From assembly GCA_035576205.1 (NCBI GenBank), contig DATLWR010000084.1:1-45379 (forward strand): DNA of 45,379 bases, in the 5' to 3' direction. Position numbers and translations under genes: made by a program. Source of the stretch: Mariprofundaceae bacterium (GTDB taxonomy: Bacteria > Pseudomonadota > Zetaproteobacteria > Mariprofundales > Mariprofundaceae). This document shows, in pieces, positions 18,505 to 45,379 of this stretch. Positions within the stretch are counted from its first letter, which is position 1; each line of letters starts with the position of its first letter. Under the pieces are notes generated by a model that was not told the origin of the DNA, made no database searches, and was given only the letters and a program-made list of their open reading frames with translations.

Positions 18505-19245
18505 ATGAGTGAGCGTTCTGTAGCACTGGTCACCGGTGCCAGCCGTGGTATCGGCTATGTTGTGGCCGTGGAGCTGGCAAAGGCCGGATTCGACCTGGCC
18601 ATCTGCGGTACTCGCGAGGAGACCATCCGCAAGGCGGCAGCTGCTATCGAGTCGGAAACCGGCGCCAGGGTTATGGCACGTGCGGTTAACGTGGCCAACA
18701 GGGACGAGATCCAGAATTTTGTCCAGGATACGGCCAAGGAGTTCGGACGGCTGGATGTGCTGGTCAACAATGCCGGCATCACCAGGGACAATCTGGCGAT
18801 GCGCATGAAGGTGGAGGAGTGGCAGGATGTCATCGAGACCAACCTGTCGTCGGTATTCCATGCCTCGCAGGCAGTGCTGAAGCCGATGATGAAGGCCCGG
18901 TCCGGCCGCATTATCAATATCTCTTCGGTTGTCGCTTCCGCTGGCAATCCGGGGCAGTTAAACTACTGCGCCAGCAAGGGGGGAGTTGAGGGGATGACCC
19001 GTTCGCTGGCACGCGAAGTTGGTTCGCGCGGCATCACGGTGAACGCGGTGGCCCCGGGCTTCATTGCAACCGATATGACCGCTGAACTGGGCGAAGAGGC
19101 GCACAAGCGCCTGACCGACCAGATTCCGCTCGGCCGCATGGGCGATGCATCGGATATCGCTGCCGCCGTGGTGTTCCTGGCAGGGCCGGGAGCGGGTTAC
19201 ATCACCGGCCACGTGTTGCACGTGAACGGTGGTATGCATATGTAG
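18505..19245 (+). CDS. fabG: 3-oxoacyl-ACP reductase
   Basis: ORF 18490..19245 opens with TTG. ATG 18505 follows the GGGAGGAG RBS. SDR motifs VALVTGASRGIG, NNAG and YCASKGG. Confidence 0.92.
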   Translation: MSERSVALVTGASRGIGYVVAVELAKAGFDLAICGTREETIRKAAAAIESETGARVMARAVNVANRDEIQNFVQDTAKEFGRLDVLVNNAGITRDNLAMRMKVEEWQDVIETNLSSVFHASQAVLKPMMKARSGRIINISSVVASAGNPGQLNYCASKGGVEGMTRSLAREVGSRGITVNAVAPGFIATDMTAELGEEAHKRLTDQIPLGRMGDASDIAAAVVFLAGPGAGYITGHVLHVNGGMHM

Positions 19246-19346
19246 TTTCTCCCTGTGCCCCGCAGCAAACGGGGGCAGGGCGATAGAGGCTTGTGCGGCG
19301 CCTTTGGCTATGTTAGAAGCCGCAATATTTATTTCGGGAGGACGAA

Positions 19347-19586
19347 ATGTCTGCAGAAATCGAAGCAAAGATCATCAAGATTGTTGCTGACCAGCTGAAC
19401 GTGGATGAGAGCGAAATCAATCCGGATTCTTCCTTCGTGGACGATCTTGGTGCCGATTCTCTGGACACCGTTGAACTGGTAATGGCATTTGAGGAGGAGT
19501 TCGGGATCGAGATTCCGGACGAGGATGCCGAGAAGATTCAGAGCGTACAGAACGCTATCGACTACATCGCTGCCAAAGCTGAATAA
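19347..19586 (+). CDS. acpP: Acyl carrier protein
   Basis: 79 aa. Phosphopantetheine attachment motif [30 protein letters not shown]. Confidence 0.97.
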
Positions 19587-19592
19587 GTCTTT

Positions 19593-20837
19593 ATGACACG
19601 TCGCGTTGTCGTGACCGGTGTCGGGCTGGTAACTCCGCTCGGCACCGGCACGCAAACCACTTGGAACAACCTGATTGCGGGAAAATCCGGTATTCGCCGG
19701 ATTACCCGTTTCGACGCCGAAGGCACGGGTATGCCGTGCCTGATCGCCGGCGAGGTGCCCGACTTCAATGTTGACGATTACGTCAACAAGAAAGATTCGA
19801 AGAAGATGGATACCTTTATCCATTACGGCATTGCCGCATCGCTGATGGCGTTGCAGCAATCCGGTCTCGAAATCACCGAAGCCAATGCCGAGCGCGTTGG
19901 TGTCATCGTCGGTTCCGGTATCGGCGGTTTGCCGATGATCGAGAAGACGATGCGCAGCTATCTCGAGGGCGGACAACGCAAGATTTCGCCGTTCTTCATT
20001 CCGCAAACCATTATCAATATGACCTCCGGCTGGGTCTCCATGATGACCGGTGCCAAGGGGCCGAATGCGGCTACGGTAACAGCATGTGCTACCGGTACGC
20101 ATGCGATCGGCGATGCCTTCGAGATCATCGCGCGCGGCGATGCCGATGCGATGATTGCCGGCGGATCCGAATCCTGCGTCTGCGAACTGGGTATCGGTGG
20201 TTTCTCGGCCAGCCGTGCGCTTTCCACCCGTAATGACGAACCGCAACGTGCCTCGCGTCCCTGGGACAAGGATCGCGATGGTTTCGTGATGGGTGAGGGT
20301 GCCGGTGTGCTGATGCTCGAATCACTGGATTCGGCGAAGGCACGTGGTGCAGAAATTCTCGCCGAGATCGTCGGTTACGGCATGTCGGGTGATGCCTATC
20401 ATATGACCTCTCCGTCGCCGGGCGGTGAGGGTGGTGGTCGCTGCATGAAGATGGCTTTGGCATCTGCAGGGTTGAACCCGGAAGATGTCGATTACGTAAA
20501 CGCCCACGGTACATCCACGCCTGCCGGCGATCTGGCCGAAACGCAGGGTATCAAGGGTGTCTTTGGTGACCATGCCTACAAGATGATGGTTTCGTCCACC
20601 AAATCGATGACCGGTCATCTGTTGGGTGCTGCTGGCGGCATCGAGGCGGCCTTCACCGTCTTGTCTGTCCACCATGGCATCGTGCCGCCGACCATCAACC
20701 TGGAAGAGGCTGGAGAGGGCTGCGATCTCGACTACGTGCCGAACGAGGCGCGCGAGGCCAATATCCGTGCCGCCGTTTCCAATTCGTTCGGTTTTGGTGG
20801 GACCAACGCATCGGTGGCATTCCGCAAGTTCGCCTGA
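19593..20837 (+). CDS. fabF: 3-oxoacyl-ACP synthase II
   Basis: 414 aa. Active-site Cys in TACATGTHAIG, plus NAHGTSTPAGD and SFGFGGTNASV. Confidence 0.95.
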   Translation: MTRRVVVTGVGLVTPLGTGTQTTWNNLIAGKSGIRRITRFDAEGTGMPCLIAGEVPDFNVDDYVNKKDSKKMDTFIHYGIAASLMALQQSGLEITEANAERVGVIVGSGIGGLPMIEKTMRSYLEGGQRKISPFFIPQTIINMTSGWVSMMTGAKGPNAATVTACATGTHAIGDAFEIIARGDADAMIAGGSESCVCELGIGGFSASRALSTRNDEPQRASRPWDKDRDGFVMGEGAGVLMLESLDSAKARGAEILAEIVGYGMSGDAYHMTSPSPGGEGGGRCMKMALASAGLNPEDVDYVNAHGTSTPAGDLAETQGIKGVFGDHAYKMMVSSTKSMTGHLLGAAGGIEAAFTVLSVHHGIVPPTINLEEAGEGCDLDYVPNEAREANIRAAVSNSFGFGGTNASVAFRKFA

Positions 20838-20845
20838 TCGACTCC

Positions 20846-22174
20846 GTGCGGTTTCGTACCGTTCCGAATAGGGGCCGTAAGCTTTCCGCTTACGGCCTTT
20901 TTTCGTCGCATCCGGATCATTTCTCGGCTGTCCTGGAGGCACCGCAAGGTCAGGGGCGTCAGTTTCTGGTTTCCACCGACGGGGAGTGGCAGTACCTCGA
21001 TCCTCTTGCCGATATGGAGGCTGGAGAACGTTTTTTTTTCGCGTGGAAACGGCAGCTTCAGTCTCAGGTTGATGATTCGTTCGCCATCCGCTGCCTGTTC
21101 TACGCTGCTTACGAAGCCGGCGGCCTGATTGAGCGACTGCCGCCACCGAAGACGGTGCCGGAGGGGCCTCTGCTGGCCGTGTTTTATCCTGCTGCGTCAC
21201 TCTGTTTTGATGCGGATCAGGATGAAATCTATCTGGCGGCCGGATCTGATGCGCGGCTGGATGAATTACAGGGCCTGCTTGATCAGGCTGCCGCATCGGC
21301 AGCGGCAGCGGATTTAAATTGTGTGGCGGACGACTGTTGCGGTTCTGACGAGACCGCTTACAAACAGGCCGTCGAGTGCGTGAAGGCCTACATATCGGCC
21401 GGTGATGTTTTCCAGGCCAATATCGCACGATTCTGGGAGATGCCATTTGCTGACTCCAAGTTGCAATGGCTCTATGCCAATCTCCGTCGGGTGAATCCGG
21501 CGCCTTTTGGATGTTTTGCCCGCATCCCATTTTCCGGCGGTCAGCTGACAATCGTATCGGCCTCGCCCGAGCGCTTGTTTCGTATCGATCAGCAGGGACA
21601 AATCGATACGCGTCCGATTGCAGGTACTCGCCGGCGCGGTGAGGGAGACCAGGACTCGTCATTGCGTGCGGAGCTGTTGCTCTCCGAGAAGGAGCGGGCC
21701 GAACACATCATGCTGGTCGACCTGGAGCGTAACGATCTGGGGCGTGTCTGTACGCCGGGGAGCGTGCGGGTCGATGAGTGCATGGTGATCGAGCAATATG
21801 CCACCGTGCAGCACATCGTTTCGAATGTGAGCGGACAGCTGGCTGAAGGCATGGATGTCGTGGATGCTTTCCGGGCCATGTTTCCGGGCGGGACCATTAC
21901 CGGCTGTCCGAAAATTCGCTGCATGCAGATCATTCATGAACTGGAACCGAGGGCGCGTGGCCCATATACGGGAGGCATTGGTTATGTTGCCTGGAATGGT
22001 GCGGCGGATATGAATATTCTGATTCGAACCTTCTGGCATCTGAATGGCAAGCTGCACTGGGCGGCGGGAGCCGGTATCGTGGCGGATTCCGAGCCCGAAC
22101 ACGAGCTTGCCGAAACCGGCTACAAGGCGGAGGGCCTGCTCAGGGCATTTGCTGGCAGCAGGGGGGCGGGGTGA
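20846..22174 (+). CDS. pabB: Chorismate-utilising enzyme, aminodeoxychorismate synthase component I-like
   Basis: 442 aa, GTG start. Chorismate-binding C-terminal domain with GDVFQANIAR, RPIAGTRRRG, EKERAEHIMLVDLERNDLGRV, FPGGTITGCPKIRCMQIIHELE and RGPYTGGIGYV. Too short for a typical TrpE and lacks a recognisable Trp-feedback N-terminal motif. Carries PIAGT rather than the E. coli PabB PIKGT. Confidence 0.7.
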   Translation: MRFRTVPNRGRKLSAYGLFSSHPDHFSAVLEAPQGQGRQFLVSTDGEWQYLDPLADMEAGERFFFAWKRQLQSQVDDSFAIRCLFYAAYEAGGLIERLPPPKTVPEGPLLAVFYPAASLCFDADQDEIYLAAGSDARLDELQGLLDQAAASAAAADLNCVADDCCGSDETAYKQAVECVKAYISAGDVFQANIARFWEMPFADSKLQWLYANLRRVNPAPFGCFARIPFSGGQLTIVSASPERLFRIDQQGQIDTRPIAGTRRRGEGDQDSSLRAELLLSEKERAEHIMLVDLERNDLGRVCTPGSVRVDECMVIEQYATVQHIVSNVSGQLAEGMDVVDAFRAMFPGGTITGCPKIRCMQIIHELEPRARGPYTGGIGYVAWNGAADMNILIRTFWHLNGKLHWAAGAGIVADSEPEHELAETGYKAEGLLRAFAGSRGAG

Positions 22175-22820: not shown

Positions 22821-23915
22821 CTATTCGCGGCCCATGCGCATCGCAAAGTCTTCCGGGAACACCGACTGTGCCAGAGCCTCCTCGTAGGTCACCAGATCGT
22901 TCTCGACCAGCTGACGCAGGTGCTGATCGAAGGTCTGGCTGCCGTAGAGCGTGCTGCCTTCCTCCATGGCGCGCGGAATTTCACGCCAGCGGTCCGGGTC
23001 CAGGATGAAGTGCTTGATGACCGAATTCCGGATCATGATTTCCAGCGCCACGATGCGGCCCTTGCCGTTCTTCAGCGGTAACAGCTTCTGGACGATGATG
23101 GCACGCAGGTTTTCGGCCAGTCGTTCGCGGATGGCGTCCTGCTCATCGAGACCGAACGAGGACATGATGCGCTGCATCGTGCCGATGGCAGATGTGGAGT
23201 GCACTGTCGCCATGACCAGATGGCCGGTTTCGGAGGCCTGCAGCGCCAGCTGGATGACCTCTCTGTCGCGCGCCTCACCGGCGACGATAATGTCGGGCGT
23301 TTCGCGCAGCGCATCATTGAGGCCCTGCGCATAGCTCAGCACGTCGCGACCCAGTTCGCGCTGGCATACCGTACCTTTCTGGTTGGTGCTGTAGCGGTAC
23401 TCGATCGGGTCTTCGAGCGTCACCGCATGTATCGGGCGATTCTCGATGACGTAATTGAGCATGGCGGCCAGCGTCGTGCTCTTGCCGGAACCGGTGGCGC
23501 CGGCCATCAGTACCAAGCCGTTGCGGTAGTTGGAGATATCGCGAATGATCGGCGGCAGGTGCAGTTCGTCGAAGCCCGGAATCTTCTGCGGGATCAGGCG
23601 GCAGACGAGCCCGAAATCCGCATTGGTGCGCAGCACGTGCATACGGAAGTGGGCGACGTTTTCCAGCGAATAGTGGAAGTCGAGATTATGAATCTCTTCG
23701 ATCGGCGGCTTTTCCGGTACGAAACGCAGCGCATGCTGGATCATGTCAATCGCCTGATCGCGGGTGATCTCGGGCACCTTGCCCGGCGAAACGGTCACGA
23801 TCGAGCCGTTGATGCGCATGCGCACGCGGTCGCCGGTGCGGATGATCAGGTCGGAAGCCTTGTGCTTGTGCGCCGCCAGCAGCAGGTCGTCGATCAGGTG
23901 CCAGTCTGCTGCCAT
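22821..23915 (-). CDS. PilT-family type IV pilus retraction ATPase, divergent third paralog
   Basis: 364 aa. N-terminal ASDLIIRTGDRVRMRINGSIV, Walker A GATGSGKSTT, and Asp/His-box regions VIAGEARD and ETGHLVMATVHS. Where PilT has the AIRNLIRE helix, this protein has NSVIKHFILD. Its ATG lies 1 nt after the pilU stop. Confidence 0.85.
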   Translation of the reverse strand: MAADWHLIDDLLLAAHKHKASDLIIRTGDRVRMRINGSIVTVSPGKVPEITRDQAIDMIQHALRFVPEKPPIEEIHNLDFHYSLENVAHFRMHVLRTNADFGLVCRLIPQKIPGFDELHLPPIIRDISNYRNGLVLMAGATGSGKSTTLAAMLNYVIENRPIHAVTLEDPIEYRYSTNQKGTVCQRELGRDVLSYAQGLNDALRETPDIIVAGEARDREVIQLALQASETGHLVMATVHSTSAIGTMQRIMSSFGLDEQDAIRERLAENLRAIIVQKLLPLKNGKGRIVALEIMIRNSVIKHFILDPDRWREIPRAMEEGSTLYGSQTFDQHLRQLVENDLVTYEEALAQSVFPEDFAMRMGRE

Positions 23916-23916
23916 G

Positions 23917-25065
23917 TCAGATACTCAGATCGGGGCTGCCGCCCGCCAGGTTGTCGAGATCCGCGCGATCGTTACCGCCTTCCAGCTTGGCCATCTTGAT
24001 CTTCAGACGGACATCGTTGACCGAGTCGGCATGCCGGATGGCTTCATCTTCGGTGATCTTGCCGTTCTTCCACAACTGGATCAGGTCCTGATCGAAGGTC
24101 TGCATGCCGTAGTTCTTGCCGGCCGCCATCGCTTCCTTGATCTCGCCGATCTCCCATTTGGAGATGAGATCGGAGATACGGGGCGTATTGATGAGCACTT
24201 CGATCGACGGCATGCGCTTGTCGTCGACCGTTTTCACCAGGCGCTGCGACAGGATCGCCTTCAGGTTGAGGGATAGATTCAAGCGTACCTGCGGATGTAC
24301 CTCTTCCGGGAAGAAGTTCATCACGCGTTCCAGCGCCTGGTTGGCATTGTTGGCGTGCAGGGTCGCCATGCAGAGGTGGCCGGTTTCGGCAAACTCGATG
24401 GCGTGCTCCATGGTTTCGCGGTCACGGATCTCGCCGATCAGGATGACGTCGGGCGCCTGGCGGAGAGTATTCTTGAGCGCCGCCTTGTATTCGTGGGTGT
24501 CGGTACCGACCTCGCGCTGGGTGACCACGCATTTCTTGTGCGGATGCACGAATTCGATGGGGTCCTCGATGGTGATGATGTGGCCGGCCTGATTGCTGTT
24601 GCGCCAGTCGATCATGGCGGCCAGCGAGGTGGATTTACCGGAGCCGGTGGCACCGACCATGATCACCAGGCCGCGCTTGGTCATCGAGATGTCCTTGAAA
24701 ACCTCGGGCAGCCCCAGTTCATCGAGTGTGGGGACCTGTGTCTTGATCTGGCGGATAACCATGCCGATGTTGCCGCGCTGACGGAAAATGTTGACGCGGA
24801 AGCGGCCGAGGTCGGGATAGGCCAGCGCCAGATTCATTTCGTATTCGGCCGCAAAGGTGGCGCGCTGCTTTTCGCTCATGGCCGAATTGGCCAGCTGTTC
24901 GCACTGCACGCTGTTCAGCGGCGGCTGCTTCAGCGGCATGACCACACCGTTGATACGGTAGGCCGGCGGCATGTCGGCCGTAATATAGACGTCCGAGGCA
25001 TCCTGTTTCACCATGACCATCAGCAGTTGCTTGATGGACAGTCTTTGCGGTTCGTTCGAACTCAT
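23917..25065 (-). CDS. pilU: Type IV pilus ATPase PilU
   Basis: 382 aa. ASDVYITADMPPAYRINGVVMPL, Walker A GATGSGKSTS, ETGHLCMATLHANNA, TPRISDLISKWEIGEIKE, and an extended C-terminus as in PilU. GAGGAG RBS. Confidence 0.85.
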   Translation of the reverse strand: MSSNEPQRLSIKQLLMVMVKQDASDVYITADMPPAYRINGVVMPLKQPPLNSVQCEQLANSAMSEKQRATFAAEYEMNLALAYPDLGRFRVNIFRQRGNIGMVIRQIKTQVPTLDELGLPEVFKDISMTKRGLVIMVGATGSGKSTSLAAMIDWRNSNQAGHIITIEDPIEFVHPHKKCVVTQREVGTDTHEYKAALKNTLRQAPDVILIGEIRDRETMEHAIEFAETGHLCMATLHANNANQALERVMNFFPEEVHPQVRLNLSLNLKAILSQRLVKTVDDKRMPSIEVLINTPRISDLISKWEIGEIKEAMAAGKNYGMQTFDQDLIQLWKNGKITEDEAIRHADSVNDVRLKIKMAKLEGGNDRADLDNLAGGSPDLSI

Positions 25066-25093
25066 CGATTAACTCCTCAATCCGGTCAGGTCG

Positions 25094-26146
25094 TCAGACA
25101 GTGCCACCACCGAACAGTTTCTTGTTGTTGGCCACCTCAAGCGCCGCCTGCTGGGTGATGGCGCGCGATTTGACCAGTTGCTGCAAGTGGGTATCCAGCG
25201 TCTGCATGCCCTCACGCTGGGCGGTCTGCATGACCGATACCATTTGCGGTACCTTGTTTTCGCGGATCAGGTTCCGGATGGCCGGTGATCCGAGCATGAT
25301 CTCGTAGCCGGCAACTCGCCCGGTGCCGTCGGCCTTCTTGATCAGCGTTTGCGAAATCACGGCTCGCAGCGATTCGGACAACATCGCGCGGACCATGTCC
25401 TTTTCCGCTGCCGGAAAGACGTCGATGATACGGTCGATCGTTTTCGGTGCCGAGGAAGTATGCAACGTACCGAACACCATGTGGCCGGTTTCGGCGGCCG
25501 TCAGAGCGAGACGAATGGTTTCGAGGTCGCGCAACTCGCCGACCAGAATGACGTCCGGATCCTCACGCAGGGCGCTGCGCAGCGCGTTGGCGAAAGAGTG
25601 GGTATGCGGCCCCAGTTCGCGCTGCGACACCAGGCTGCTCTTGGAGCGGTGCACGAATTCGATCGGGTCCTCGATGGTCAGTATATGGCCTTTCTCGAGC
25701 TGGTTGCGATGGTCGATCATCGCCGCGAGGGTGGTCGATTTGCCCGAACCGGTCGGGCCAGTCACCAGGCAGATGCCGCGCGGTGTCATGGCAATTTCAC
25801 CGAAAATCTCCGGCGACTTGAGCTGCTCGAAGGTGAAGACTTCGCTCGGGATGACGCGGAATACCGCGCTCATGCCGCGGTTCTGCTGGAAGGCATTAAC
25901 ACGGAAACGGGCGATATCGCCCAGCGAGAAGGAGAAATCGAGCTCCAGATGTTCTTCGAACACCTTGCGCTGGGTGTCGCTCATGATGTCGTAGACCATG
26001 GCCTGTACTTCGCGGCCATCGAGGTTCGGCATCTTGATGCGGGTCATGTCACCGTGAATACGCACCATGGGAGGTTCGCCGGACGAAATGTGCAGGTCCG
26101 AAGCGTTGTTTTTAACGGTAAAGGCCAACAGTTCCGAAACGTCCAT
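25094..26146 (-). CDS. pilT: Twitching motility ATPase PilT
   Basis: 350 aa. ASDLHISSGEPPMVRIHGDM, Walker A GPTGSGKST, ETGHMVFGTLHTSSA, and the PilT signature AIRNLIRE. Confidence 0.92.
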   Translation of the reverse strand: MDVSELLAFTVKNNASDLHISSGEPPMVRIHGDMTRIKMPNLDGREVQAMVYDIMSDTQRKVFEEHLELDFSFSLGDIARFRVNAFQQNRGMSAVFRVIPSEVFTFEQLKSPEIFGEIAMTPRGICLVTGPTGSGKSTTLAAMIDHRNQLEKGHILTIEDPIEFVHRSKSSLVSQRELGPHTHSFANALRSALREDPDVILVGELRDLETIRLALTAAETGHMVFGTLHTSSAPKTIDRIIDVFPAAEKDMVRAMLSESLRAVISQTLIKKADGTGRVAGYEIMLGSPAIRNLIRENKVPQMVSVMQTAQREGMQTLDTHLQQLVKSRAITQQAALEVANNKKLFGGGTV

Positions 26147-33132: not shown

Positions 33133-33438
33133 GTGAAACCATCATTTTTCCCGATTGTCATTGTTGCCGGGATCGTTGCTGCATCCGCTCCGGCTGCTCC
33201 CATGTTGTTGTCGTCTGGCTGGGTCGCACCGGTCGTGGCGGCAGAGGGGGAGGGTAATATGGAAAAGGTCCACCTGATCCTCAAAAAATTGCGCGACGCG
33301 ATGGCCAGCATGAAGGATCTCGATGAGCTGGAGTCGGCCGGCATGCCGAAGTCGGATGTCGATCGCATGCGCAGTGCCATGCAGAACAAGATCAACCAGA
33401 TGATGACCGATGCCATGAATGATATTCGGGCACTTTGA
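33133..33438 (+). CDS. Hypothetical small exported/membrane-anchored Met-rich protein
   Basis: 101 aa. GTG start about 9 nt after the GAGGGAGGG RBS. Hydrophobic N-terminus (FFPIVIVAGIVAASAPAAPMLL). The predicted helical C-terminal half has 9 Met in the last 59 residues. I recognise no family. Confidence 0.45.
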   Translation: MKPSFFPIVIVAGIVAASAPAAPMLLSSGWVAPVVAAEGEGNMEKVHLILKKLRDAMASMKDLDELESAGMPKSDVDRMRSAMQNKINQMMTDAMNDIRAL

Positions 33439-33484
33439 TTCGGTTTGTGTTTAATTGATTTGTAATTAATCGAGGAGGGGGAAT

Positions 33485-34000
33485 ATGAAAAAAAGGATCG
33501 CATGGCTGTTGATCGCAACGGGAGGCTTGCTGGCGGCTTCCTCGGCGTTTGCCGATGAGACAAGACATCTGAATTTCGCGGCTTTCCAGAAGGTGAAAAA
33601 GGATTTCACATTTGATCCGATCGTGGTCGGCAAGTTCAGCGACTTCATTTCGGCCATGGATGGGGCGCAGGTACTTATCCTGTCGCACACCTCGGATTCG
33701 GTGGACGGTGATGTCATCAATATCCAGCAGGACGTCCTGCGCCAGGATGGCCAGAATCTCGGCGACTACGGCATTAACTGCCAGCTGAGTTTCAAGGACG
33801 AAAGCACGAAGGCCAATACCTCGTATGCCGTGGGCGGCTTGTGCAATATCCTGCGTGTCGGCAATGGCCAGAACATGAAGCTCAAGGCGATTATTCCGCC
33901 TGCCAGCTTGCCGGACACAACGCAGGGCGTGGAAGCCTGGGTCGAGCTCTACGAAGATGACGCGACCGGTATCGCCTTTTACGCCAATGTCAGCCACTAA
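33485..34000 (+). CDS. Hypothetical secreted protein
   Basis: 171 aa. GAGGAGGGGG RBS. Classic signal peptide MKKRIAWLLIATGGLLAASSAFA/DE. Two Cys in the mature part. Its own terminator follows. I recognise no family. Confidence 0.65.
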   Translation: MKKRIAWLLIATGGLLAASSAFADETRHLNFAAFQKVKKDFTFDPIVVGKFSDFISAMDGAQVLILSHTSDSVDGDVINIQQDVLRQDGQNLGDYGINCQLSFKDESTKANTSYAVGGLCNILRVGNGQNMKLKAIIPPASLPDTTQGVEAWVELYEDDATGIAFYANVSH

Positions 34001-35630: not shown

Positions 35631-36983
35631 ATGCGAAAACAGATTCTCGCATGGCTGTTGCCGTGCATGTTGGTGGCTGCGCCGGTGGCGCAGGCTGCAT
35701 CCGTGGAAACCACGGACGAGCTGAAAACGCTGAAGGAGCAGGTCCGTCTGCTGCAGCAAAAGATCGATAAAATGGAAACCCGTTTGCAGGCCAGCGAGAA
35801 GCAACCGGCAGCTGCGGCACCGGCCGAGCCCGTCGTCCAGGCTGCCGAATCGGCGCAGCCGCAGAACACGACGCGTTCGGATGCCAATGTCTTTAACCCG
35901 CAGATCAGCATGGTGCTGAACGGTTCCTACCGCGCCTTCTCGCACAATCCGGCCACCTTTGCCGTACCCGGTTTTGCGCTGGGGGATTCGGCCGGGCTCG
36001 GCGACCGCGGATTCGGCATCAACGAATCGGAACTGAACTTTGCCGCCAATGTGGACAACCTGTTTTACGCCGACTCGACCCTGTCGCTGCCGCGCACCGG
36101 CGGCATCAACGTCGAGGAGGCCTATTTCCAGACGCTGGCGCTGCCGGCCGGGTTGACCGTAAAGGCCGGCCGTTTCTTCTCGGGTATCGGTTACATCAAC
36201 CAGTTCCATCCGCACCACGACGATTTCATCGACCGTTCGCTGGCCAACCGCGTCTTCCTGAACAGCACCTTTGCCGGTGACGGTATCCAGGTACGCTGGC
36301 TTGCCCCGACCGACACCTATTTCGAGCTGGGCAGCGAGTTGCTGCGTGGCGACCGCTATCCCGGCGGCGGTGCCGCCCTGCGGGGAGCCGGCTCGTGGGA
36401 CGTGTTCGCCCATGTCGGCGGCGATGTCGGTTTCAGCAACAGCTGGCGTGCCGGCCTCTCCTGGCTGAGCACGAAACCGCTGGGGCGCAGCAGCTTCGAC
36501 AATACCGGTGCGGTGACCGGCACCTTCGACGGCAACAGCCAGCTGCTCATCGGAGATCTGGTCTGGAAATGGGCTCCGAACGGCAACCCCTACGACACCA
36601 ACTTCAAGTTCCAGACCGAGCTGTTCCAGCAGCAGGAGAAGGGGATGTTCGCCAATGCCGGCAGCCCTGCCGCGAGCTACAGCGGCCGGCACTGGGGCGG
36701 TTATGCCGAGGCCGTTTACCAGTTCACGCACGGCTGGGATATCGGTATCCGCCACTCGGAGGTGTTTGCCAGGAATACGGGTGCGGCCGTGGTGCCGGGC
36801 AGCGTGCTCGATACGCTCGGTTTTCGTCCAAAGCGGACCAGCCTGGTGCTGGGCTATGCCAATAGCGAATTCAGCCGTTTTCGTTTGCAGTTCAGCCGCG
36901 ACCAGAGCCGGCCGGTCACCGACAACCAGGTGGCCCTGCAGTACCTGATGTTGATCGGCGCCCACGGTGCCCACCAGTTTTGA
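35631..36983 (+). CDS. Putative outer-membrane beta-barrel protein with N-terminal coiled coil
   Basis: 450 aa. GGAGGA RBS. Signal peptide MRKQILAWLLPCMLVAAPVAQA/AS. Heptad segment TDELKTLKEQVRLLQQKIDKMETRLQASEKQ. Long alternating beta-strand-like region that ends ...LMLIGAHGAHQF with a terminal Phe, typical of OM barrels. Confidence 0.7.
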   Translation: MRKQILAWLLPCMLVAAPVAQAASVETTDELKTLKEQVRLLQQKIDKMETRLQASEKQPAAAAPAEPVVQAAESAQPQNTTRSDANVFNPQISMVLNGSYRAFSHNPATFAVPGFALGDSAGLGDRGFGINESELNFAANVDNLFYADSTLSLPRTGGINVEEAYFQTLALPAGLTVKAGRFFSGIGYINQFHPHHDDFIDRSLANRVFLNSTFAGDGIQVRWLAPTDTYFELGSELLRGDRYPGGGAALRGAGSWDVFAHVGGDVGFSNSWRAGLSWLSTKPLGRSSFDNTGAVTGTFDGNSQLLIGDLVWKWAPNGNPYDTNFKFQTELFQQQEKGMFANAGSPAASYSGRHWGGYAEAVYQFTHGWDIGIRHSEVFARNTGAAVVPGSVLDTLGFRPKRTSLVLGYANSEFSRFRLQFSRDQSRPVTDNQVALQYLMLIGAHGAHQF

Positions 36984-38698: not shown

Positions 38699-40381
38699 CT
38701 AAGGCGTTTCTGCCGTGACATGGTATTTCTGCTCGCCGGTGGGCACGAACCAGTGTTCGCTGTTCCAGCCGATGCCGGCCGGTGCCGGCTCGATGCCGTG
38801 GATGCGCTTGTGGAACACCGGCAGCGAGTAGGGGGCATAAAGGAAGACGATAGGTACGTCGTTGTAGATCTCCTGCTGCACGATGTCGTACAGCCGCTTG
38901 CGTTCGGCGGTATCGAAAGTGCGGCGGGCATCGACCAGTGCCTTGTCTACCTTCGGATTGCTGTAGGAGAGGAAGTTGAACTCGCGCGGGCCGGTCTGCG
39001 ACGAATGCCAGATGTTGTACTGGTCGGGCTCGGGAGAGAGCGACCAGCCGAGGATGACGGCATCGAAATCACGCTTGTTGATGAAGTTCTCGATGAAGGC
39101 GGACCACTCCACCAGCCGTATCCTGACGTCGATGCCGACTTCCTTGAGTCGCTGCTGCATGATGATGGCGGCATCGGCGCGTTGCTTGTTGCCGTTGTTG
39201 GTTAAAATCGTGAACGACAGCGGCTTGCCGTCCTTGTCGAGGATGCCGTCGCCGTCCGTATCTGACCAACCGTCCTCTTTGAGGAGTTCCTTCGCTATTT
39301 CAGGATTATAGACGCGTGGCTTCAAGTTCTTGTTGACCCACTGCGTGCCCGGTTTGTAGGGGCTGGCGATCACCTCGCCGAGCCCGAGAAGCACGCCGTC
39401 GACCAGCTCCTGGCGATTGATGGCGTAGGCGATGGCTTCCCGTACCCTGGGGTCGGTGAACGGCGCGCGCTTGAGGTTGAAACCGAGATAGGTGTAGACG
39501 AAATCGAGGTATTTGTAGCGTCGGTAGTTGTTTTTCAGCTCCGGCTTCATGTCGAACAGGCGTGTGTATTGCAGCGGAGACAGCCCCATCGAATCCAGCC
39601 GGCCGGCGGAGAGTTCGAGGAACTGGGTGGCCGGGTCGGGAATGATGCGGGTCAGGCGTTCGGCGATCCATACCGGGCCATCGAAATAGTCGCGGTTGGC
39701 GCGCATCAGGATCGATTGCTGCGACTGCCAGTCGGCCAGGAAATAGGGGCCGATGGTCGCTTTCGGATGACGTGACAAATCCGTGTGCATGACGTCCTCA
39801 TGCTCGAAGACGTGCTTGGGCAGAATGGCCAGCGAGGCCCACGAGGAGAGGGCGGGAGAGAATGGCTCGTCATAGTGCACGGTGAAGGTGTAGGTATCCG
39901 GCGCTTCGGCCCGTTTGACCATGGCGTAATCGGCCTTGTAGGCACTCTGCGTATGGTCGTCCTGGATCAGCCGCAGCGTGAACAGGCAATCGGCCGAGGT
40001 GAAGGGTTGGCCATCACTCCATTTCAGGCCGTGCCGGATATGGAAAGTGATACTGAGGTTGTCCTTGGAAACCTCCCAGCTTTCAGCCAGCTGTCCGACC
40101 AGCTTCAGGTTGCGGTCGTATTTCAGCAACGGCAGGTACATCTGGCCGGCAATGGCATGGCTTGCCGCATCGCCGGCAATCATCGGGATCAGATTGCTGG
40201 CATCGCCGATGCTGGCATCAACCAGCCGGTCGCCGAAGGCCGGTACGGCGTTGATCGCAGCGGAATCCTGCGGTGTTTCAGTCTGTTGTTGATTGCCGGT
40301 CGGCGAGGAGCAACTCGCCAGCAGCAGCAACAGGGCAATGAAACTGCGTTTCAGATGGGGCGAATGCGCGCAAGAATCCAC
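38699..40381 (-). CDS. ABC transporter substrate-binding lipoprotein, family 5 (peptide/nickel/opine type)
   Basis: 560 aa, GTG start. Lipobox LLLLASCSS. Family-5 SBP body (GDASNLIPMIAGDAASHAIAGQMYLPLLKYD, LKWSDGQPFTSADCLFT). Overlaps the upstream mltD-like gene by 31 nt. Confidence 0.85.
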   Translation of the reverse strand: MDSCAHSPHLKRSFIALLLLLASCSSPTGNQQQTETPQDSAAINAVPAFGDRLVDASIGDASNLIPMIAGDAASHAIAGQMYLPLLKYDRNLKLVGQLAESWEVSKDNLSITFHIRHGLKWSDGQPFTSADCLFTLRLIQDDHTQSAYKADYAMVKRAEAPDTYTFTVHYDEPFSPALSSWASLAILPKHVFEHEDVMHTDLSRHPKATIGPYFLADWQSQQSILMRANRDYFDGPVWIAERLTRIIPDPATQFLELSAGRLDSMGLSPLQYTRLFDMKPELKNNYRRYKYLDFVYTYLGFNLKRAPFTDPRVREAIAYAINRQELVDGVLLGLGEVIASPYKPGTQWVNKNLKPRVYNPEIAKELLKEDGWSDTDGDGILDKDGKPLSFTILTNNGNKQRADAAIIMQQRLKEVGIDVRIRLVEWSAFIENFINKRDFDAVILGWSLSPEPDQYNIWHSSQTGPREFNFLSYSNPKVDKALVDARRTFDTAERKRLYDIVQQEIYNDVPIVFLYAPYSLPVFHKRIHGIEPAPAGIGWNSEHWFVPTGEQKYHVTAETP

Positions 40382-41643
40382 AGGCGGTCCCCGGGGCGTA
40401 AAGTCGCATCGGTCGACATCTCATTGGAGCGTGCGATGGCCTGTGGCGTGGTGCCGAAGCGTTCGGCGATTTTCCAGAGCGAGTCGCCGCTACGCACCTT
40501 GTACTGGATGCGCCGGCCTTGCGACAGCAGCGGATTCGGTGTGGCGATAGCCTGGGCGAGAGCATTGGCCGGAACCTTCAGGGGCTGGCCGACGTGCAGT
40601 ACCTTCGAAATACCCGGATTCAGGCGTCTCAGATAGGCCACGTCAATGTGGTGGCGTCGGGCGATCGTCCACAGCGAGTCGCCATCCCGTACCGTGGTGC
40701 TGACAAACTGCGGGCCACATGTCTCCTGGGCGGAAATCACCGATGCGGCCTTGTCATCCGGGACATGGATGGTGACCGGTTCATTGAGGTACTGGGCGTG
40801 ATTGAGGCCGGGATTGAAGCGGAAAAACTCCTCGACACCGAGGTCGCTGACGCTGGCCAGCTGCTTCAGGTCAATGGGGGACTCGACCGTGATTGCCCGG
40901 GTTGGCAATGGATCGGGAAAGCAGAGCACACCCATGTGCAACAGTGCCGCCAGTCCGATGATGTCGCGGACATAGTCGCGCGTCACCGCCGGCACGGGCA
41001 TCTGGTCGAGACCGTCGGCCGGCTGCCAGGGCGTTTTCTGCAGGCGCCTGGCTACAGCGTTCGGACCGTAATTGTAGGCAGCAAGCGCCAGCGGCCAGTT
41101 GCCGAAGCGATCGTGCAGCGACTGCAGGTAGCGGACGGCCGCCTCGGAGCTGGACTCCACGTGACGCCGGCCATCGATGTCGGAGGATTTCCGGATCCCC
41201 AGGAAATGGGCGGTTGTCGGCATCAGTTGCCACAGTCCCATGGCGCCGGCATGGGAGAGCGCATACGGGTTGTAACCCGATTCGACGATCGGAACCGCTT
41301 CGAGGGACTGAGGGGCCTGCAATTGCGCCAGTTCGGCCAGCATGCGATAGCGGACATAGCGGGACTTGCCGGAAATATACGGCCAGTATTTCAGGTAGTT
41401 CTGTTTGGCCTGCGCCTGGGCCTTGGCAAGGTCGTCCGGCAACAGACCGTCCAGCAACGGGTCGGGCTGGTTGATTCGCAGGGACTGTTGTTCTGTTCCG
41501 TTCCCGAGGCTGGCTGTTTGCGAGGAGTCCTTCGCGGCAGGCTTGTCGCTTTCGGTTTGTTTCACGACAGGCGCACAGCCGGCTGCAAGCATCAGCGCGC
41601 AGAGATAGGCGGTCATCCGACCTGTCGGGGTGCCGAAAACCAT
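40351..41643 (-). CDS. mltD: Membrane-bound lytic murein transglycosylase D-like lipoprotein with LysM repeats
   Basis: Track ORF opens with TTG 41649. ATG 41643 gives MVFGTPTGRMTAYLCALMLAAGC (lipobox). SLT catalytic region VPIVESGYNPYALSHAGAMGLWQLMPTTA. Two C-terminal LysM repeats (VRDGDSLWTIARRHHIDVAYLRRLNP and VRSGDSLWKIAERFGTTPQAIARSN). Confidence 0.85.
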   Translation of the reverse strand: MVFGTPTGRMTAYLCALMLAAGCAPVVKQTESDKPAAKDSSQTASLGNGTEQQSLRINQPDPLLDGLLPDDLAKAQAQAKQNYLKYWPYISGKSRYVRYRMLAELAQLQAPQSLEAVPIVESGYNPYALSHAGAMGLWQLMPTTAHFLGIRKSSDIDGRRHVESSSEAAVRYLQSLHDRFGNWPLALAAYNYGPNAVARRLQKTPWQPADGLDQMPVPAVTRDYVRDIIGLAALLHMGVLCFPDPLPTRAITVESPIDLKQLASVSDLGVEEFFRFNPGLNHAQYLNEPVTIHVPDDKAASVISAQETCGPQFVSTTVRDGDSLWTIARRHHIDVAYLRRLNPGISKVLHVGQPLKVPANALAQAIATPNPLLSQGRRIQYKVRSGDSLWKIAERFGTTPQAIARSNEMSTDATLRPGDRLWILARIRPI

Positions 41644-41768
41644 GCGCAAATCCTAGCGGGCAGCCCGCGACGGTAAAGAGTTTCCTTGTATTGCATGGAA
41701 ATCTTGCCTTTTTTCTCGCCAGACCTATCGTTCATACGAGTAGATTTTCCCGGGGGGCAATCGACAGG

Positions 41769-43979
41769 ATGTTACTGAAACAGCAGCGGGAGCTGGTCCA
41801 GACAGGGGTCGTCACCGAGGCGCAGCTGTCGGAGGCGCTGGAGTCCCCGGAGGCCAAGAAATCCGGCCTGTTATTTGCCCTGCTGCAAACGCCCGGTGTC
41901 GATGAGAAGGTGCTGCTGCAGACATTGGCCCGGACCTACAAGGTTCCTTACCTCGACCTGAGCAATTTCAAACCCGATCCGAAACTGCTGGATGTTTGTT
42001 CCGAAGCGCTCTGTCTCGAGTACGGTTTTGTGCCGATCGATTCGCATGACGGCAATCTGGTGATCGCGATGGGCGATCCGCTCAACTACACCGCACTGGA
42101 TGCCCTGCGTTTCAAGCTTGGCCGCCAAATCCGCCCGATCTTCGCCCGCCCCGACCTGATCCAGCGCAAGGTCAGGGAATATTACCAGGGGGAGGAGAGC
42201 TTCGATGCCGCCATGAGCGAGCTGGAAGGTGGCGGTGGTGGCTTCGATGTGGAAGCGGTCAGCCATGAACAGGAAACGGCCAACCTGGATGAGTTGCGGA
42301 AAGGGGCCGAGGACTCGCCCATCATCAAGCTGGTCAACGGTGTGGTCGTCAAGGCCCTCAAGAGCGGCAGTTCCGATATCCATATCGAGCCGGGCGAACA
42401 GCACAGTGTCGTCCGTCTGCGCGTCGATGGCCGTCTCAGGCCGTCGCTGAAATTCCCCAGCAATGTCCATTCGCTGGTTGCCTCGCGCATCAAGATCATG
42501 GCGAAGCTCGATATCTCCAATACGCGCACACCGCAGGACGGGCGCGCCAGGGTGCGCATGTGGGACAAGAACTACGACATGCGTATCTCCACGCTGCCGG
42601 CGATGTACGGCGAAAAGGTGGTGATCCGCATCCTCGACAAGAGTGGCCTGTCGCTGAAGCTCGAGGCTCTGGGTTTCGAGAAAACGGCCGATGCACGGGT
42701 CCGTGAATGCATTACCCGGCCGACGGGCGCCGTGCTGGTCACCGGGCCGACTGGCAGCGGCAAGACCACGACGCTCTATTCGTTCCTGCACCATATCAAT
42801 GATCCGGAAACCAACATGATCACCGTGGAGGATCCGGTCGAGTTCCAGATCAAGGGCATCAACCAGGTGCAGATCAATCCCAAGGCCGGTATGACCTTCG
42901 CCGCCGCGCTGCGTTCGATCCTGCGCCAGGATCCGGATGTCGTGATGGTCGGCGAAATTCGCGACGAGGAGACGGCGGAGATCGCCCTGCACGCCGCGCA
43001 GACCGGCCATCTGGTGCTTTCCACACTGCATACCAACGATGCGCCGTCGACGGTGACGCGCCTGCGTGAGATGGGGATCGATTCGACGCTCTTGGCCTCG
43101 TCGCTGAATCTGATCGTCGCCCAGCGGCTGGTGCGCCGTTTGTGTCCGTCCTGCAAGGTGGAGGACGAACTCGATGCGGAGACCATCGAGCGCTTCGATG
43201 TCCCCGAGGGCGTGACGCTCTACAAGCCGAAGGGGTGCGAGCGTTGCATGAATGTCGGCTACCGTGGGCGTATCGGCGTGCATGAGGTACTCTATATCAA
43301 CGACCGTTTGCGGGAGATGGTCGCGCGCAGCGTATCCGACCGCGATCTGCTGCTGGCAGCCCGCGAGGAGGGGATGTTCACGCTGTTCGAGGATGGCTTC
43401 GCCAAGGCACTGAAGGGTCTGACCAGTCTGAAGGAGGTGCTGCGCATGGCGACACCTCCTGAGGATTTTCATTTGCGCGACCGGCTGGACGAGGAGGGGA
43501 ACCTGCTATCGCTCGGTGGTTCCTTGCGTCGCCGTGAGCAGGAGCGGCGACAGGTCAGCCAGTCGACCGGTGAAAGGACCATTCTGGTCGTGGATGATTC
43601 GAGCAGTGTGCGACAAGTGGTGAAGTTCGTGCTGGCTGCGGAGGGCTTCCAGATCCTGCAGGCCGAGGACGGCCAGCAGGCCTGGGACATGATCCAGCGT
43701 ACCAAACCGGATATGGTGATCTCCGATTTCGACATGCCGAACATGTCGGGCCCCGAGCTGATCCAGCGTATCCGGCAGCAGGGGGCGTTCAACGATATGC
43801 CGGTGATGTTGCTGACCTCGCATAAGGAAGAGGAAGCCGAGGTACTTGGACTTGAAACCGGCGCGGATGATTATATCGGAAAACCGGTCGAACCATTGAA
43901 ACTGCAGGCCAGAGTGAAGAAGATGCTGGCAATGTACGATCGGATTCGCGTCGCTTCACAGGGGGATTTGAATGGCTGA
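41769..43979 (+). CDS. PilB/GspE-family secretion ATPase fused to a C-terminal CheY-like receiver domain
   Basis: Track ORF opens with TTG 41691. The first ATG at 41769 gives 736 aa. N-terminal T2SSE_N-like domain (LVQTGVVTEAQLSEAL...YGFVPIDSHDGNLVIAMGDPLN). ATPase core with Walker A GPTGSGKTTT, MVGEIRDEETA and QTGHLVLSTLHTNDA. Tetracysteine CPSC...CERC. A linker, then a receiver domain from 43575 (ILVVDDSS, MVISDFDMPNMSG, LLTS, YIGKP). One continuous frame with no stop or frameshift. Confidence 0.85.
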   Translation: MLLKQQRELVQTGVVTEAQLSEALESPEAKKSGLLFALLQTPGVDEKVLLQTLARTYKVPYLDLSNFKPDPKLLDVCSEALCLEYGFVPIDSHDGNLVIAMGDPLNYTALDALRFKLGRQIRPIFARPDLIQRKVREYYQGEESFDAAMSELEGGGGGFDVEAVSHEQETANLDELRKGAEDSPIIKLVNGVVVKALKSGSSDIHIEPGEQHSVVRLRVDGRLRPSLKFPSNVHSLVASRIKIMAKLDISNTRTPQDGRARVRMWDKNYDMRISTLPAMYGEKVVIRILDKSGLSLKLEALGFEKTADARVRECITRPTGAVLVTGPTGSGKTTTLYSFLHHINDPETNMITVEDPVEFQIKGINQVQINPKAGMTFAAALRSILRQDPDVVMVGEIRDEETAEIALHAAQTGHLVLSTLHTNDAPSTVTRLREMGIDSTLLASSLNLIVAQRLVRRLCPSCKVEDELDAETIERFDVPEGVTLYKPKGCERCMNVGYRGRIGVHEVLYINDRLREMVARSVSDRDLLLAAREEGMFTLFEDGFAKALKGLTSLKEVLRMATPPEDFHLRDRLDEEGNLLSLGGSLRRREQERRQVSQSTGERTILVVDDSSSVRQVVKFVLAAEGFQILQAEDGQQAWDMIQRTKPDMVISDFDMPNMSGPELIQRIRQQGAFNDMPVMLLTSHKEEEAEVLGLETGADDYIGKPVEPLKLQARVKKMLAMYDRIRVASQGDLNG

Positions 43980-44490
43980 AGAAACCCGCAGCGCCAACGA
44001 AAACGCCGCTGTTGCCACGCCGGAAGAGATCAAAGGCGATATTGCGCAGGAACTTGCGGCAAGGCTCGAGGATGTGTTGCTGACGGACATCGGCGGCAAG
44101 GAACTGCTTGTCAGGGTGGCGGAAACACGCGAGGTGATCCGCCCCCTGCCGCTGACGCCGGTGCCAATGGGGCCCGATCATCTGCTTGGATTGGCCAACG
44201 TGCGCGGCCAGATCGTGTGCGTCATCGATCCCGGCAAGATCAGCAGCCTGCCGGACGTGAATCGCGAGATCACGCCACAAACCCGGTTTGTGGTGCTTCG
44301 GCATCCGCGCATGCACGTCGGCATCTGGGTCGATGCGGTCAGGGCTATCTATCAGGTGCGCAGCGATGATCTGCCGCAGCCGGCGGCAAGGGAAAGCGGG
44401 GCGGCACGGACCAAGGATTACAGCAGCGGCACACTCGAGGTGGGAGGGCGCTCCTACGAGGTGCTGGATTGCTCGGTGATTTTCCATTGA
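43972..44490 (+). CDS. cheW: CheW-like chemotaxis coupling protein
   Basis: 172 aa. CheW-domain pattern ELLVRVAETREVIRPLPLTPVPMGPDHLLGLANVRGQIVCVIDPGKI ... FVVLRHPRMHVGIWVDAVRAIYQV. The ATG overlaps the end of the ATPase-REC gene by 8 nt. Confidence 0.8.
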   Translation: MAEETRSANENAAVATPEEIKGDIAQELAARLEDVLLTDIGGKELLVRVAETREVIRPLPLTPVPMGPDHLLGLANVRGQIVCVIDPGKISSLPDVNREITPQTRFVVLRHPRMHVGIWVDAVRAIYQVRSDDLPQPAARESGAARTKDYSSGTLEVGGRSYEVLDCSVIFH

Positions 44491-44580
44491 GCGGCAGCCG
44501 TATGCTGCTTGCATTGCGCAAGAGCAGCGGACAATATTTTGATCGATCGGCAGTGACGGTCGTAAAGGGGAGAAAAGACA

Positions 44581-45379
44581 ATGGCAGAAGCAGCAAAGGG
44601 TAGTGTCCAAAAGAAGAAGAGATCGCTGAGGCAACAATCCAACCGGAACATGCTGCTTTCGGTGCTGCTCTTCGCGGTTCTTGTCTCGACCGTCTTTTTC
44701 GCTTTCCAGCAGACCAAGGCGGGCATGCAATCGCTGAGCGGGCTGTACGGCGACCAGCTGCGGCTCGAACAGTTCAAGGCTTCTCTCCCCAACCTGTTGT
44801 TGCCGTTGAACGATTACACCATGACCGGCAACAGCCAGGATGTTCCGAAACTGAAGAGCGCAGCCGATGAGTTTCAGACGCTGTATACCGGTGTGGACGC
44901 GCTGCCCAGCCTTTCCGCCGACGACAAGAAACTGCTGACGCAGGTGTTCGGCCTGATGCGTGAGGTGATCACGATCTCGGATGATATCGTCAGCGGCAAG
45001 ATTCCCAGCGGGCAGGCCAACAACGTTGCCGTTGTGGCACAGAACCTGGTGTTTGTGGCACAGCAAAAGCTAAGTACCGTGGCCGAGCATCTGAACAGCT
45101 CGCTGAAGAGCGATACCGAGACAAAACGCGAACAGGTCGACCAGCAGTCCTACCTGATTCTCGGCATTATCGTCTTTCTCGTCATTCTGCTGGCCTTCCT
45201 CAGCCGCAGCCTGGTGAAAAACTTGACGCAGACCATTACCGATGTGGCCCGCAATGTGACCCAGACCTCCGCGGAGATCCTGCAGGCCGTGGACCAGCAG
45301 GCGAATGCTGCGGATACCCAGTCGAAGTCGGTGGAGCAGATCGCCATCGAACTGCGTCAGATGTCCGACGCATCGCGGA
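44581..45379 (+). CDS. Methyl-accepting chemotaxis protein-like transducer (5' part, runs off the window)
   Basis: Not in the ORF track because no stop is reached. I translated it by hand from ATG 44581 (AAGGGGAG RBS) and it is open for 266 codons to the window end. TM1 (MLLSVLLFAVLVSTVFFAF), a helical periplasmic region of about 150 aa, TM2 (YLILGIIVFLVILLAFL), then a Q/A/S/E-rich heptad segment (TQTSAEILQAVDQQANAADTQSKSVEQIAIELRQMS) like MCP cytoplasmic helices. The conserved signalling hairpin tip is not in the window. Confidence 0.6.
   Translation, partial: MAEAAKGSVQKKKRSLRQQSNRNMLLSVLLFAVLVSTVFFAFQQTKAGMQSLSGLYGDQLRLEQFKASLPNLLLPLNDYTMTGNSQDVPKLKSAADEFQTLYTGVDALPSLSADDKKLLTQVFGLMREVITISDDIVSGKIPSGQANNVAVVAQNLVFVAQQKLSTVAEHLNSSLKSDTETKREQVDQQSYLILGIIVFLVILLAFLSRSLVKNLTQTITDVARNVTQTSAEILQAVDQQANAADTQSKSVEQIAIELRQMSDASR

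Follow-up and report, generated by a model that had tools for sequence, protein, structure and literature searches.

The last few kilobases of a 45,379-nucleotide stretch of DNA from a Mariprofundaceae bacterium (contig DATLWR010000084.1; the whole stretch is called the window below), a member of the iron-oxidising, marine Zetaproteobacteria, carry a gene, here named pilB-REC, that joins an ATPase of the PilB/GspE type to a receiver domain (REC). It is followed by cheW and by the 5' part of a gene for a methyl-accepting chemotaxis protein (MCP), so that the window shows the first three genes of a PilB-REC operon whose cheA falls outside it. Exact-sequence look-ups of pilB-REC and CheW returned no match, and gene context was therefore drawn from orthologues. 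Pfam calls were judged against curated gathering thresholds, and residue invariance was scored on 31 pilB-REC orthologues. The features of the operon are as follows.

41769..43979, + strand: pilB-REC, 736 amino acids (aa); the maximal open reading frame (ORF) opens with TTG at 41691, the conserved start is ATG 41769
41769..42200, + strand: MshEN/GSPII region of pilB-REC (residues 1-144), PF05157 84 bits at residues 57-144, with degenerate motifs for cyclic di-GMP (c-di-GMP)
42306..43445, + strand: PilB/GspE-type ATPase core (residues 180-559), PF00437 466 bits over profile positions 3-370
43446..43580, + strand: linker of 45 aa beginning MATPPEDFHLRDRLDEEGNLLSLGG, read from the sequence
43581..43916, + strand: receiver (residues 605-716), PF00072 104 bits
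43972..44490, + strand: cheW, 172 aa, PF01584 82.6 bits, overlapping pilB-REC by 8 nt
44581..45379, + strand: 5' part of the MCP gene, 266 codons, cut by the window end, two transmembrane segments (TM1 and TM2), no HAMP domain

Domain make-up of the PilB-receiver fusion

The ORF 41691..43979 on the + strand is open throughout, and its three Pfam domains, MshEN, T2SSE and Response_reg, all score above their gathering cut-offs, in agreement with an earlier note on this DNA that had described one uninterrupted frame joining an N-domain, an ATPase and a receiver. That note placed the start at 41691; the extent of the ORF stands, and the start codon was set 78 nt too far upstream. Given that all 30 aligned orthologues begin with MLLKQQ/MHLK... 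at the equivalent position and that a database protein 99% identical to pilB-REC is likewise called from the methionine at 41769, translation almost certainly starts at ATG 41769. All 120 of the best database homologues have the length and architecture of pilB-REC (59-85% identity, one at 99%). Those carrying taxon names belong to Mariprofundaceae, Mariprofundus, Ghiorsea or 'Zetaproteobacteria bacterium', and their annotations read 'PilB' or 'ATPase, T2SS/T4P/T4SS family'. With the fusion intact in 120/120 best homologues and on nine independent contigs, an artefact of assembly or frameshift at the junction was ruled out, and the frame does not resolve into separate pilB and cheY genes. In one database entry, P0002 (ENA; 99% identical to window 41769-43700), seven residues (RLREMVA) are duplicated in tandem and REC is frameshifted after about residue 642. 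This lesion sits within REC, away from the ATPase-REC junction, and probably reflects faulty assembly or a strain whose receiver is inactivated.

The ATPase core holds Walker A, the Asp box, Walker B, the His box and the CPSC/CERC zinc motif. Walker A (GPTGSGKTTT, 42744-42773) and the tetracysteine (C459, C462, C490 and C493) were read directly at the places first reported for them, and the four cysteines are invariant, as are all catalytic motifs. The alignment to the NCBIfam PilB equivalog TIGR02538 (634.1 bits) covers positions 4-562 of the 564 in the profile. The PilB of the type IVa pilus (T4aP) of Myxococcus xanthus (3jc8) is collinear over residues 9-563 (476 bits), its alignment to the N-domain being free of gaps, and Geobacter PilB scores 461-467 bits. 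An AlphaFold2 (AF2) monomer model built from the 31 orthologues has a mean predicted local distance difference test (pLDDT) value of 80, and its core superimposes on Geobacter metallireducens PilB (5tsh_F) with a TM-score of 0.90 and a root-mean-square deviation of 2.7 Å at 48% identity. Structure comparison found no solved structure spanning an ATPase plus a receiver.

Binding of c-di-GMP by MshEN domains is defined by two tandem 24-residue motifs, RLGxx(L)(V/I)xxG(I/F)(L/V)xxxxLxxxLxxQ (PMC5013675). In pilB-REC the first motif has KQQ in place of RLG, and the second has G33 for R, L35 for G and T for Q. R-to-G and G-to-L substitutions abolish c-di-GMP binding in XpsE (PMC5013675), and changes of this kind occur in the degenerate motifs across the zetaproteobacterial pilB-REC family. 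Regulation by c-di-GMP through MshEN was set aside, neither motif fitting the binding consensus, and their degeneracy suggests that in this family a phospho-switch stands in for the c-di-GMP input.

The phospho-switch would be the C-terminal domain. A linker of about 45 aa had been noticed before the receiver, and it occupies 43446-43580. Throughout the zetaproteobacterial family the first half of this linker has the conserved motif TPPE[DG]F.L.DRLD..G.L.SLG, which is predicted to be ordered (pLDDT ~85), and in the AF2 model a helix at residues 582-600 runs from the linker into REC. This linker motif is absent from nearly all the non-zetaproteobacterial PilB-REC fusions compared. The receiver itself displays the paired aspartates in LVVDDSS, the acceptor Asp653 (codon 43725-43727) within MVISDFDMP, the threonine in LLTS and the lysine in IGKP. 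With D609, D610, D653, T683, K705 and P706 all invariant, the claim of an intact receiver retaining every phosphorylation residue is borne out. The earlier note had called it a CheY receiver, of which the receiver part stands and the type does not. The domain aligns with the E. coli PhoB receiver without gaps at 99 bits, taking in GLETGADDYI.KP and the alpha5 arginine, compared with about 78 bits for CheY. Judged by these residues, it is a standard, phosphorylatable receiver of OmpR/PhoB flavour and not PilG- or CheY-like.

A conserved chemosensory operon

The order PilB-REC, CheW, MCP (~485 aa, HAMP-less) and CheA-REC was found at 9/9 orthologous loci, these being all the orthologous loci with enough downstream sequence (L001, L002, L003, L006-L009, L016 and L017). 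They include Mariprofundus ferrooxydans (L002 and L003, one region represented twice, so that nine loci correspond to eight species), Ghiorsea sp. (L016), L017 and four further loci from zetaproteobacterial metagenome-assembled genomes. The cheA gene that had been expected beyond the window thus lies directly past the MCP gene wherever the order could be followed. L001 is the closest of these loci, at 83% identity, and has the same SBP_bac_5 and MltD-like genes in synteny upstream.

The 8-nt overlap of cheW with pilB-REC is as first described; a Shine-Dalgarno sequence (GGGGGA) precedes cheW, whose position is kept at the nine loci. The MCP gene starts 90 nt further on, behind a strong ribosome-binding site. 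Its 266-aa fragment in the window stops before the signalling domain and has no Pfam match of its own, and it shares 82% identity with residues 1-265 of the 488-aa MCP of L001, which scores 107.6 bits for MCPsignal and has a canonical hairpin tip; this orthologue supports the identification of the third gene as an MCP-like transducer with two TM segments. About 279 residues (~40 heptads) follow TM2, and the impression that a HAMP domain is missing agrees with the lack of any HAMP match in four orthologues at E<=10. The periplasmic domain comprises about 145 aa (window 44700-45150) with the invariant core L.Y..Q...E.F...L.....P.ND. A profile of nine such domains matched nothing in the PDB, and the sole Pfam match was a weak one to CHASE3 (E = 0.0026), from a single member. 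As for the kinase, the 848-aa CheA of L001 consists of an Hpt domain with the phospho-His motif DAHTIKGSA, HATPase_c, a P5 domain of CheW type and a REC at the C-terminus; no P2 domain was found in the CheA of the operon.

Individual loci depart from this pattern in detail. In M. ferrooxydans, the MCP orthologue (L002:12702-14147) has a degenerate hairpin tip, LNASIDGSENVPGSFTGEVQRMAG, with a 7-residue deletion. It fails the Pfam MCPsignal model (E = 0.71), yet aligns collinearly with the remaining orthologues (33% identity), and the receptor-kinase interface may have diverged in this species. The cheA of Ghiorsea sp. (L016:14232-16899) is called as two genes of 201 and 443 aa with a 730-nt gap, which may reflect a frameshift, an assembly problem or a bipartite CheA. 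In L001, a second MshEN-T2SSE-REC paralogue (18531-20996, 821 aa, 28% identical) lies about 4 kb past cheA, with a cNMP-binding protein and MazG encoded between them. Both of its His-box histidines are gone (MVISVPCDG) and its Asp box is altered, and it retains Walker A, the tetracysteine and every receiver residue. Found in L001 only among the loci examined, it may be a pseudo-ATPase regulator, and a counterpart probably lies just past the window end here.

Within +/-10 kb in L001, L002, L016 and L017, no CheB, CheR, CheZ or stand-alone CheY was called. With no free CheY nearby, the conserved module has no receiver outside the kinase other than the REC fused to PilB, which is for this reason likely to be the output of the pathway. 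A quite improbable alternative is that REC leaves the catalysis of the motor unregulated and acts as a sink for phosphate, or tethers the ATPase to the chemosensory array or the cell pole, with an unlinked response regulator as the real output. Extra receivers and CheA-REC hybrids are often sinks, as described for PilH (PMC11656802) and PixH (PMC11181946), and Pseudomonas aeruginosa PilG governs the localisation of PilB and not demonstrably its activity (PMC12632253, PMC11656802). In the genome of M. ferrooxydans PV-1, a single CheW, three receivers resembling CheY and very few MCPs were reported (PMC3179512); with so few Che components, the pathway may serve more than one output. If the single CheW of PV-1 is the one of this operon, the operon would be the sole chemosensory system of a flagellated organism. 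Against a sink or tether, however, CheA already has a REC of its own for that role, and the covalent 1:1 fusion is present in every zetaproteobacterial orthologue together with a linker that is conserved, peculiar to the family and predicted to be ordered; retention of both points to intramolecular coupling. Moreover, DrdR, which consists of two RECs with no output domain, alters PilB ATPase activity directly (PMC13507683).

The probable filament and a proposed mechanism

Three tandem genes for retraction ATPases of the PilT/PilU family (22821-26146) lie 15.5 kb from pilB-REC in the same window; all exceed the TIGR01420 equivalog cut-off of 319 bits.

25094-26146, - strand: PilT/PilU-family retraction ATPase gene 1, 350 aa, TIGR01420 500 bits, 470 bits to P. 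aeruginosa PilT (3jvu)
23917-25065, - strand: PilT/PilU-family retraction ATPase gene 2, 382 aa, TIGR01420 450 bits
22821-23915, - strand: PilT/PilU-family retraction ATPase gene 3, 364 aa, TIGR01420 353 bits

Dedicated retraction motors imply a dynamic T4aP, which needs an extension ATPase. Because of these genes and of the full-length similarity to PilB, a T4aP is the most likely client of pilB-REC. The earlier note had held the machine to be unknown for want of pilus genes; it was right that no pilin, PilC or secretin gene is adjacent, and too strong in view of the three PilT/PilU genes and the full-length PilB match. We consider it probable, at about 0.6, that pilB-REC is a T4aP extension ATPase carrying at its C-terminus the receiver of a minimal, dedicated chemosensory pathway.

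Several observations weigh against this assignment. The window, otherwise of housekeeping content, contains no pilin, PilC, PilD or PilMNOPQ gene, and none was found within +/-10 kb in the same four loci. Both equivalog cut-offs are missed, with 634.1 against 675.65 bits for PilB (TIGR02538) and 586.8 against 630.25 bits for GspE, so that equivalence to a housekeeping PilB is not established and pilB-REC could instead be a diverged paralogue. A canonical, unfused PilB may also be encoded in zetaproteobacterial genomes; no zetaproteobacterial taxon appears among the names listed for the ten closest unfused clusters, and a scan of the genome collection with exact peptide words returned five zetaproteobacterial loci. 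The AF2 monomer has a predicted TM-score (pTM) of 0.49, and the model does not give the placement of REC within the hexamer. CheA and REC are paired by their linkage in the operon only, because the receiver is PhoB-like and CheA has no P2 docking domain. At a distant locus, in Thiohalorhabdus (L005:7120-19450), the complete gspCDEFGHIJ operon of a type II secretion system (T2SS) lies two genes downstream of a PilB-REC. Finally, the function of every family member is predicted from sequence.

Some of these points would also fit an unlikely alternative in which the same signalling acts on another type IV filament machine, namely a T2SS pseudopilus or an MSHA-like or accessory pilus, and not on the T4aP served by PilT/PilU. 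They are the scores under both the PilB and the GspE cut-off, the absence of adjoining pilC and pilD genes at all four loci and the Thiohalorhabdus arrangement; in addition, Vibrio vulnificus GspE is among the best Foldseek E-values, and the Mariprofundus micogutta orthologue is named 'general secretion pathway protein E' by one source. By contrast, the match to PilB is full-length and includes the N-terminal region, whereas matches to GspE begin only at about residue 88-98; PilB outscores GspE in both NCBIfam and the PDB; and the gsp operon of Thiohalorhabdus has a GspE of its own.

It is also conceivable, though far less probable, that pilB-REC is a signalling ATPase and not a filament motor, relaying the Che signal to exopolysaccharide, stalk or attachment. 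M. xanthus PilB has been reported in exopolysaccharide signalling (PMC5544727). pilB-REC stands apart from genes for pilus structure, and L001 encodes its catalytically degenerate PilB-REC paralogue 4 kb downstream. The catalytic motifs are, however, all invariant in the family, and the operon occurs in both Ghiorsea sp. and Mariprofundus. Ghiorsea is not known to form stalks, and the operon would therefore not track stalk formation. A pan-genome study of zetaproteobacterial stalks, moreover, does not list the gene as stalk-linked and leaves pili and PilB unmentioned.

For pilB-REC as a T4aP extension ATPase, the following scheme is proposed, in which we infer that CheA is the phosphoryl donor, that the ATPase responds and that the filament is a T4aP. 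The HAMP-less MCP with its two TM segments would sense a periplasmic cue and, via CheW, set the rate of autophosphorylation of the hybrid CheA (Hpt-P3-P4-P5-REC). The phosphoryl group would then pass from the Hpt histidine of CheA to Asp653 of the PilB-fused REC, and the C-terminal REC of CheA would compete as a sink and end the signal, as CheA-REC hybrids use their own receiver elsewhere (PMC11181946, PMC10782961, PMC11656802); genes for CheZ, CheX, CheB and CheR were not found nearby. Phosphorylation would shift the seating or the pairing of the six RECs around the ATPase ring. PhoB-like receivers dimerise via their alpha4-beta5-alpha5 face once phosphorylated, and given that REC is PhoB-like over alpha4-beta5-alpha5, pairing of RECs between neighbouring protomers is proposed. 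Through the conserved, predicted-ordered linker this change could alter the activity of the ring or its docking to the PilC/PilM platform, switching the hexamer on or off and so gating pilus extension. In the zetaproteobacterial family, the phospho-switch would replace the c-di-GMP input that many PilB/MshE ATPases take through MshEN. The complete proposal, that the pilus motor itself is the response regulator, with CheA phosphorylating Asp653 and gating the hexamer via PhoB-like pairing in place of c-di-GMP or adaptor inputs, is put forward tentatively, at somewhat less than even odds.

Distribution, related systems and flanking genes

To place the fusion, 1.84 billion representatives of 50%-identity clusters were searched exhaustively with HMMER. 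The best 150 were scored with local hidden Markov models built from zetaproteobacterial REC and ATPase segments, and ten representatives were confirmed with Pfam. The zetaproteobacterial pilB-REC family falls in one 50%-identity cluster. PilB with a C-terminal REC was found in 77 of the 150 best representatives, one of the 77 having three RECs, and an N-terminal REC in 8. Of 76 full REC segments from the fusions, 71 retain the acceptor Asp, 73 the Lys and 75 the Thr/Ser, a pattern by which the fused receiver appears to be under selection. Linkers range from 25 to 334 residues and are mostly of low complexity, some having zinc-ribbon-like CxxC pairs.

Six non-zetaproteobacterial PilB-REC loci were free of Che genes. 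At L004:9675-18363, in an 8.2-Mb genome, PilB-REC is flanked on one side by a gene for a lone Hpt protein and on the other by a gene for a giant hybrid kinase (a 2,036-aa Ser/Thr-kinase/GAF/PAS protein); the locus of Thiohalorhabdus, a named member of the fusions, is described above; one of the others is near a PilQ-like secretin gene and three are orphans. Linkage to Che genes as a general property of PilB-REC is unsupported in the face of these contexts, and the Che wiring therefore looks zeta-specific in this sample. Rarity of the architecture is likewise ruled out by at least 77 separate 50%-identity clusters plus the whole zetaproteobacterial family; the architecture is widespread and probably serves several signalling inputs. 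A further variation among the top matches is a group of 16 proteins of about 1,000 aa (P0121-P0135 and P0122) with two tandem T2SSE cores, and P0122 (1,047 aa) adds a T2SSF (PilC/GspF platform) domain to its ATPase cores.

The literature on PilB-receiver fusions and on the pili or chemotaxis of Zetaproteobacteria and Mariprofundus was searched, and no description of the fusion or of the zetaproteobacterial operon was found. A 2024 review of PilB regulators (PMC11656802) nowhere mentions a receiver fusion, the words 'receiver' and 'fused' not occurring in it, zetaproteobacterial genome and pan-genome papers leave the pilB-REC gene unmentioned, and the paper on MshEN notes REC only among domains that co-occur with it (PMC5013675). 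The earlier note had known of no characterised example, and this survey turned up none. The note had named as a refutation that the architecture is common and already described in function; it is indeed common, being routinely auto-annotated as 'PilB', and no functional description was found in this literature.

Chemosensory control of pilus extension is known, and the system is best classed as an uncharacterised variant of it. The Pil-Chp system of P. aeruginosa likewise controls PilB via a phosphorylated receiver, using an MCP (PilJ), a CheW-like coupler (PilI) and a CheA (ChpA) that ends in a REC (PMC12632253, PMC11656802). The receivers PilG and PilH are free proteins there, whereas PilB itself contains the zetaproteobacterial receiver; the zetaproteobacterial CheA has a single Hpt domain, compared with many in ChpA; PilK and ChpB provide adaptation, whereas the operon is without linked adaptation enzymes; and the Pil-Chp output runs partly via cyclic AMP. 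Phosphorylated PilG controls PilB localisation (PMC12632253), and according to the 2024 review no interaction of PilG or PilH with PilB has been reported and the mechanism of PilB localisation is still a question (PMC11656802). In the Tax1 system of Synechocystis (PixJ-PixL-PixG/PixH), a Che-like kinase with a C-terminal REC likewise feeds a regulator that acts on the extension ATPase, and PixG binds PilB1 only when phosphorylated (PMC11181946). By contrast to the zetaproteobacterial REC, which is covalently attached to the C-terminus of the ATPase and has no PATAN domain, PixG is a separate protein with a PATAN output. The REC-only protein DrdR of Xanthomonas campestris follows the same receiver-on-PilB logic, but in trans: it binds PilB and PilT and raises the ATPase activity of both (PMC13507683), and it is a separate, orphan tandem-REC regulator that also acts on PilT and is encoded outside a Che operon.

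Control of MshE and PilB by c-di-GMP concerns the same ATPase family and N-domain, and the signal is read there too by a domain fused to the motor (PMC5013675). In the zetaproteobacterial family, by contrast, the binding motifs are degenerate and a fused C-terminal REC would be the sensor instead. In REC-AAA+ activators of sigma-54 (NtrC, NtrC1 and DctD), receiver pairing upon phosphorylation controls the assembly or activity of the ring. These activators, however, belong to another ATPase branch and have an N-terminal REC and a transcriptional output. Among chemosensory classes, the C-terminal REC of the zetaproteobacterial CheA, its lack of P2 (PMC10782961) and the ~40-heptad MCP are consistent with the Tfp class of Wuichet and Zhulin, and the single Hpt domain is atypical of a class that typically has several.

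Direct contacts of receivers with the extension ATPase have been shown only recently, in cyanobacteria (PMC11181946) and in Xanthomonas (PMC13507683). If the proposal is true, this would be the first Che pathway to act on an ATPase of the secretion superfamily without an intermediary, and it would offer a clean in vitro system for how receivers control PilB. A covalent PilB-REC with its kinase, coupler and receptor in a four-gene operon would be a minimal, reconstitutable system in which ATPase rate, hexamer state and platform binding can be followed. By a 'Rosetta-stone' argument, the fusion would also mark receiver-PilB contact as an ancestral or general logic. For Zetaproteobacteria, where only flagella and stalks have been discussed so far, it points, moreover, to attachment or surface motility by regulated pili. 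The novelty lies in recognising the fusion and not in its rarity, the fusion being abundant in databases; its functional steps we infer from sequence.

Upstream of the operon are the following two features.

41650..41768, no strand: divergent intergenic region of 119 nt between the MltD-like gene and pilB-REC
40351..41649, - strand: MltD-like lytic transglycosylase with SLT and two LysM domains, the divergent neighbour

The promoter of the operon presumably lies within the intergenic region; a promoter scan of 41500-45379 found no sigma-70-like site. The MltD-like gene, which had been suggested as a possible helper of the machine, does recur upstream of the operon, in seven zetaproteobacterial loci (the window, L001, L007, L008, L009, L016 and L017), at L008 about 3 kb off and not adjacent, and it is absent at the M. 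ferrooxydans locus (L002). Nothing ties it functionally to the system; it may be mere synteny, and its membership is doubtful. Further upstream, a 450-aa ORF (35631-36983, + strand) between an OprB porin gene and a ZnuA gene has no Pfam match, and short ORFs at 33392-34000, likewise without a Pfam match, correspond to unannotated small genes in L001.

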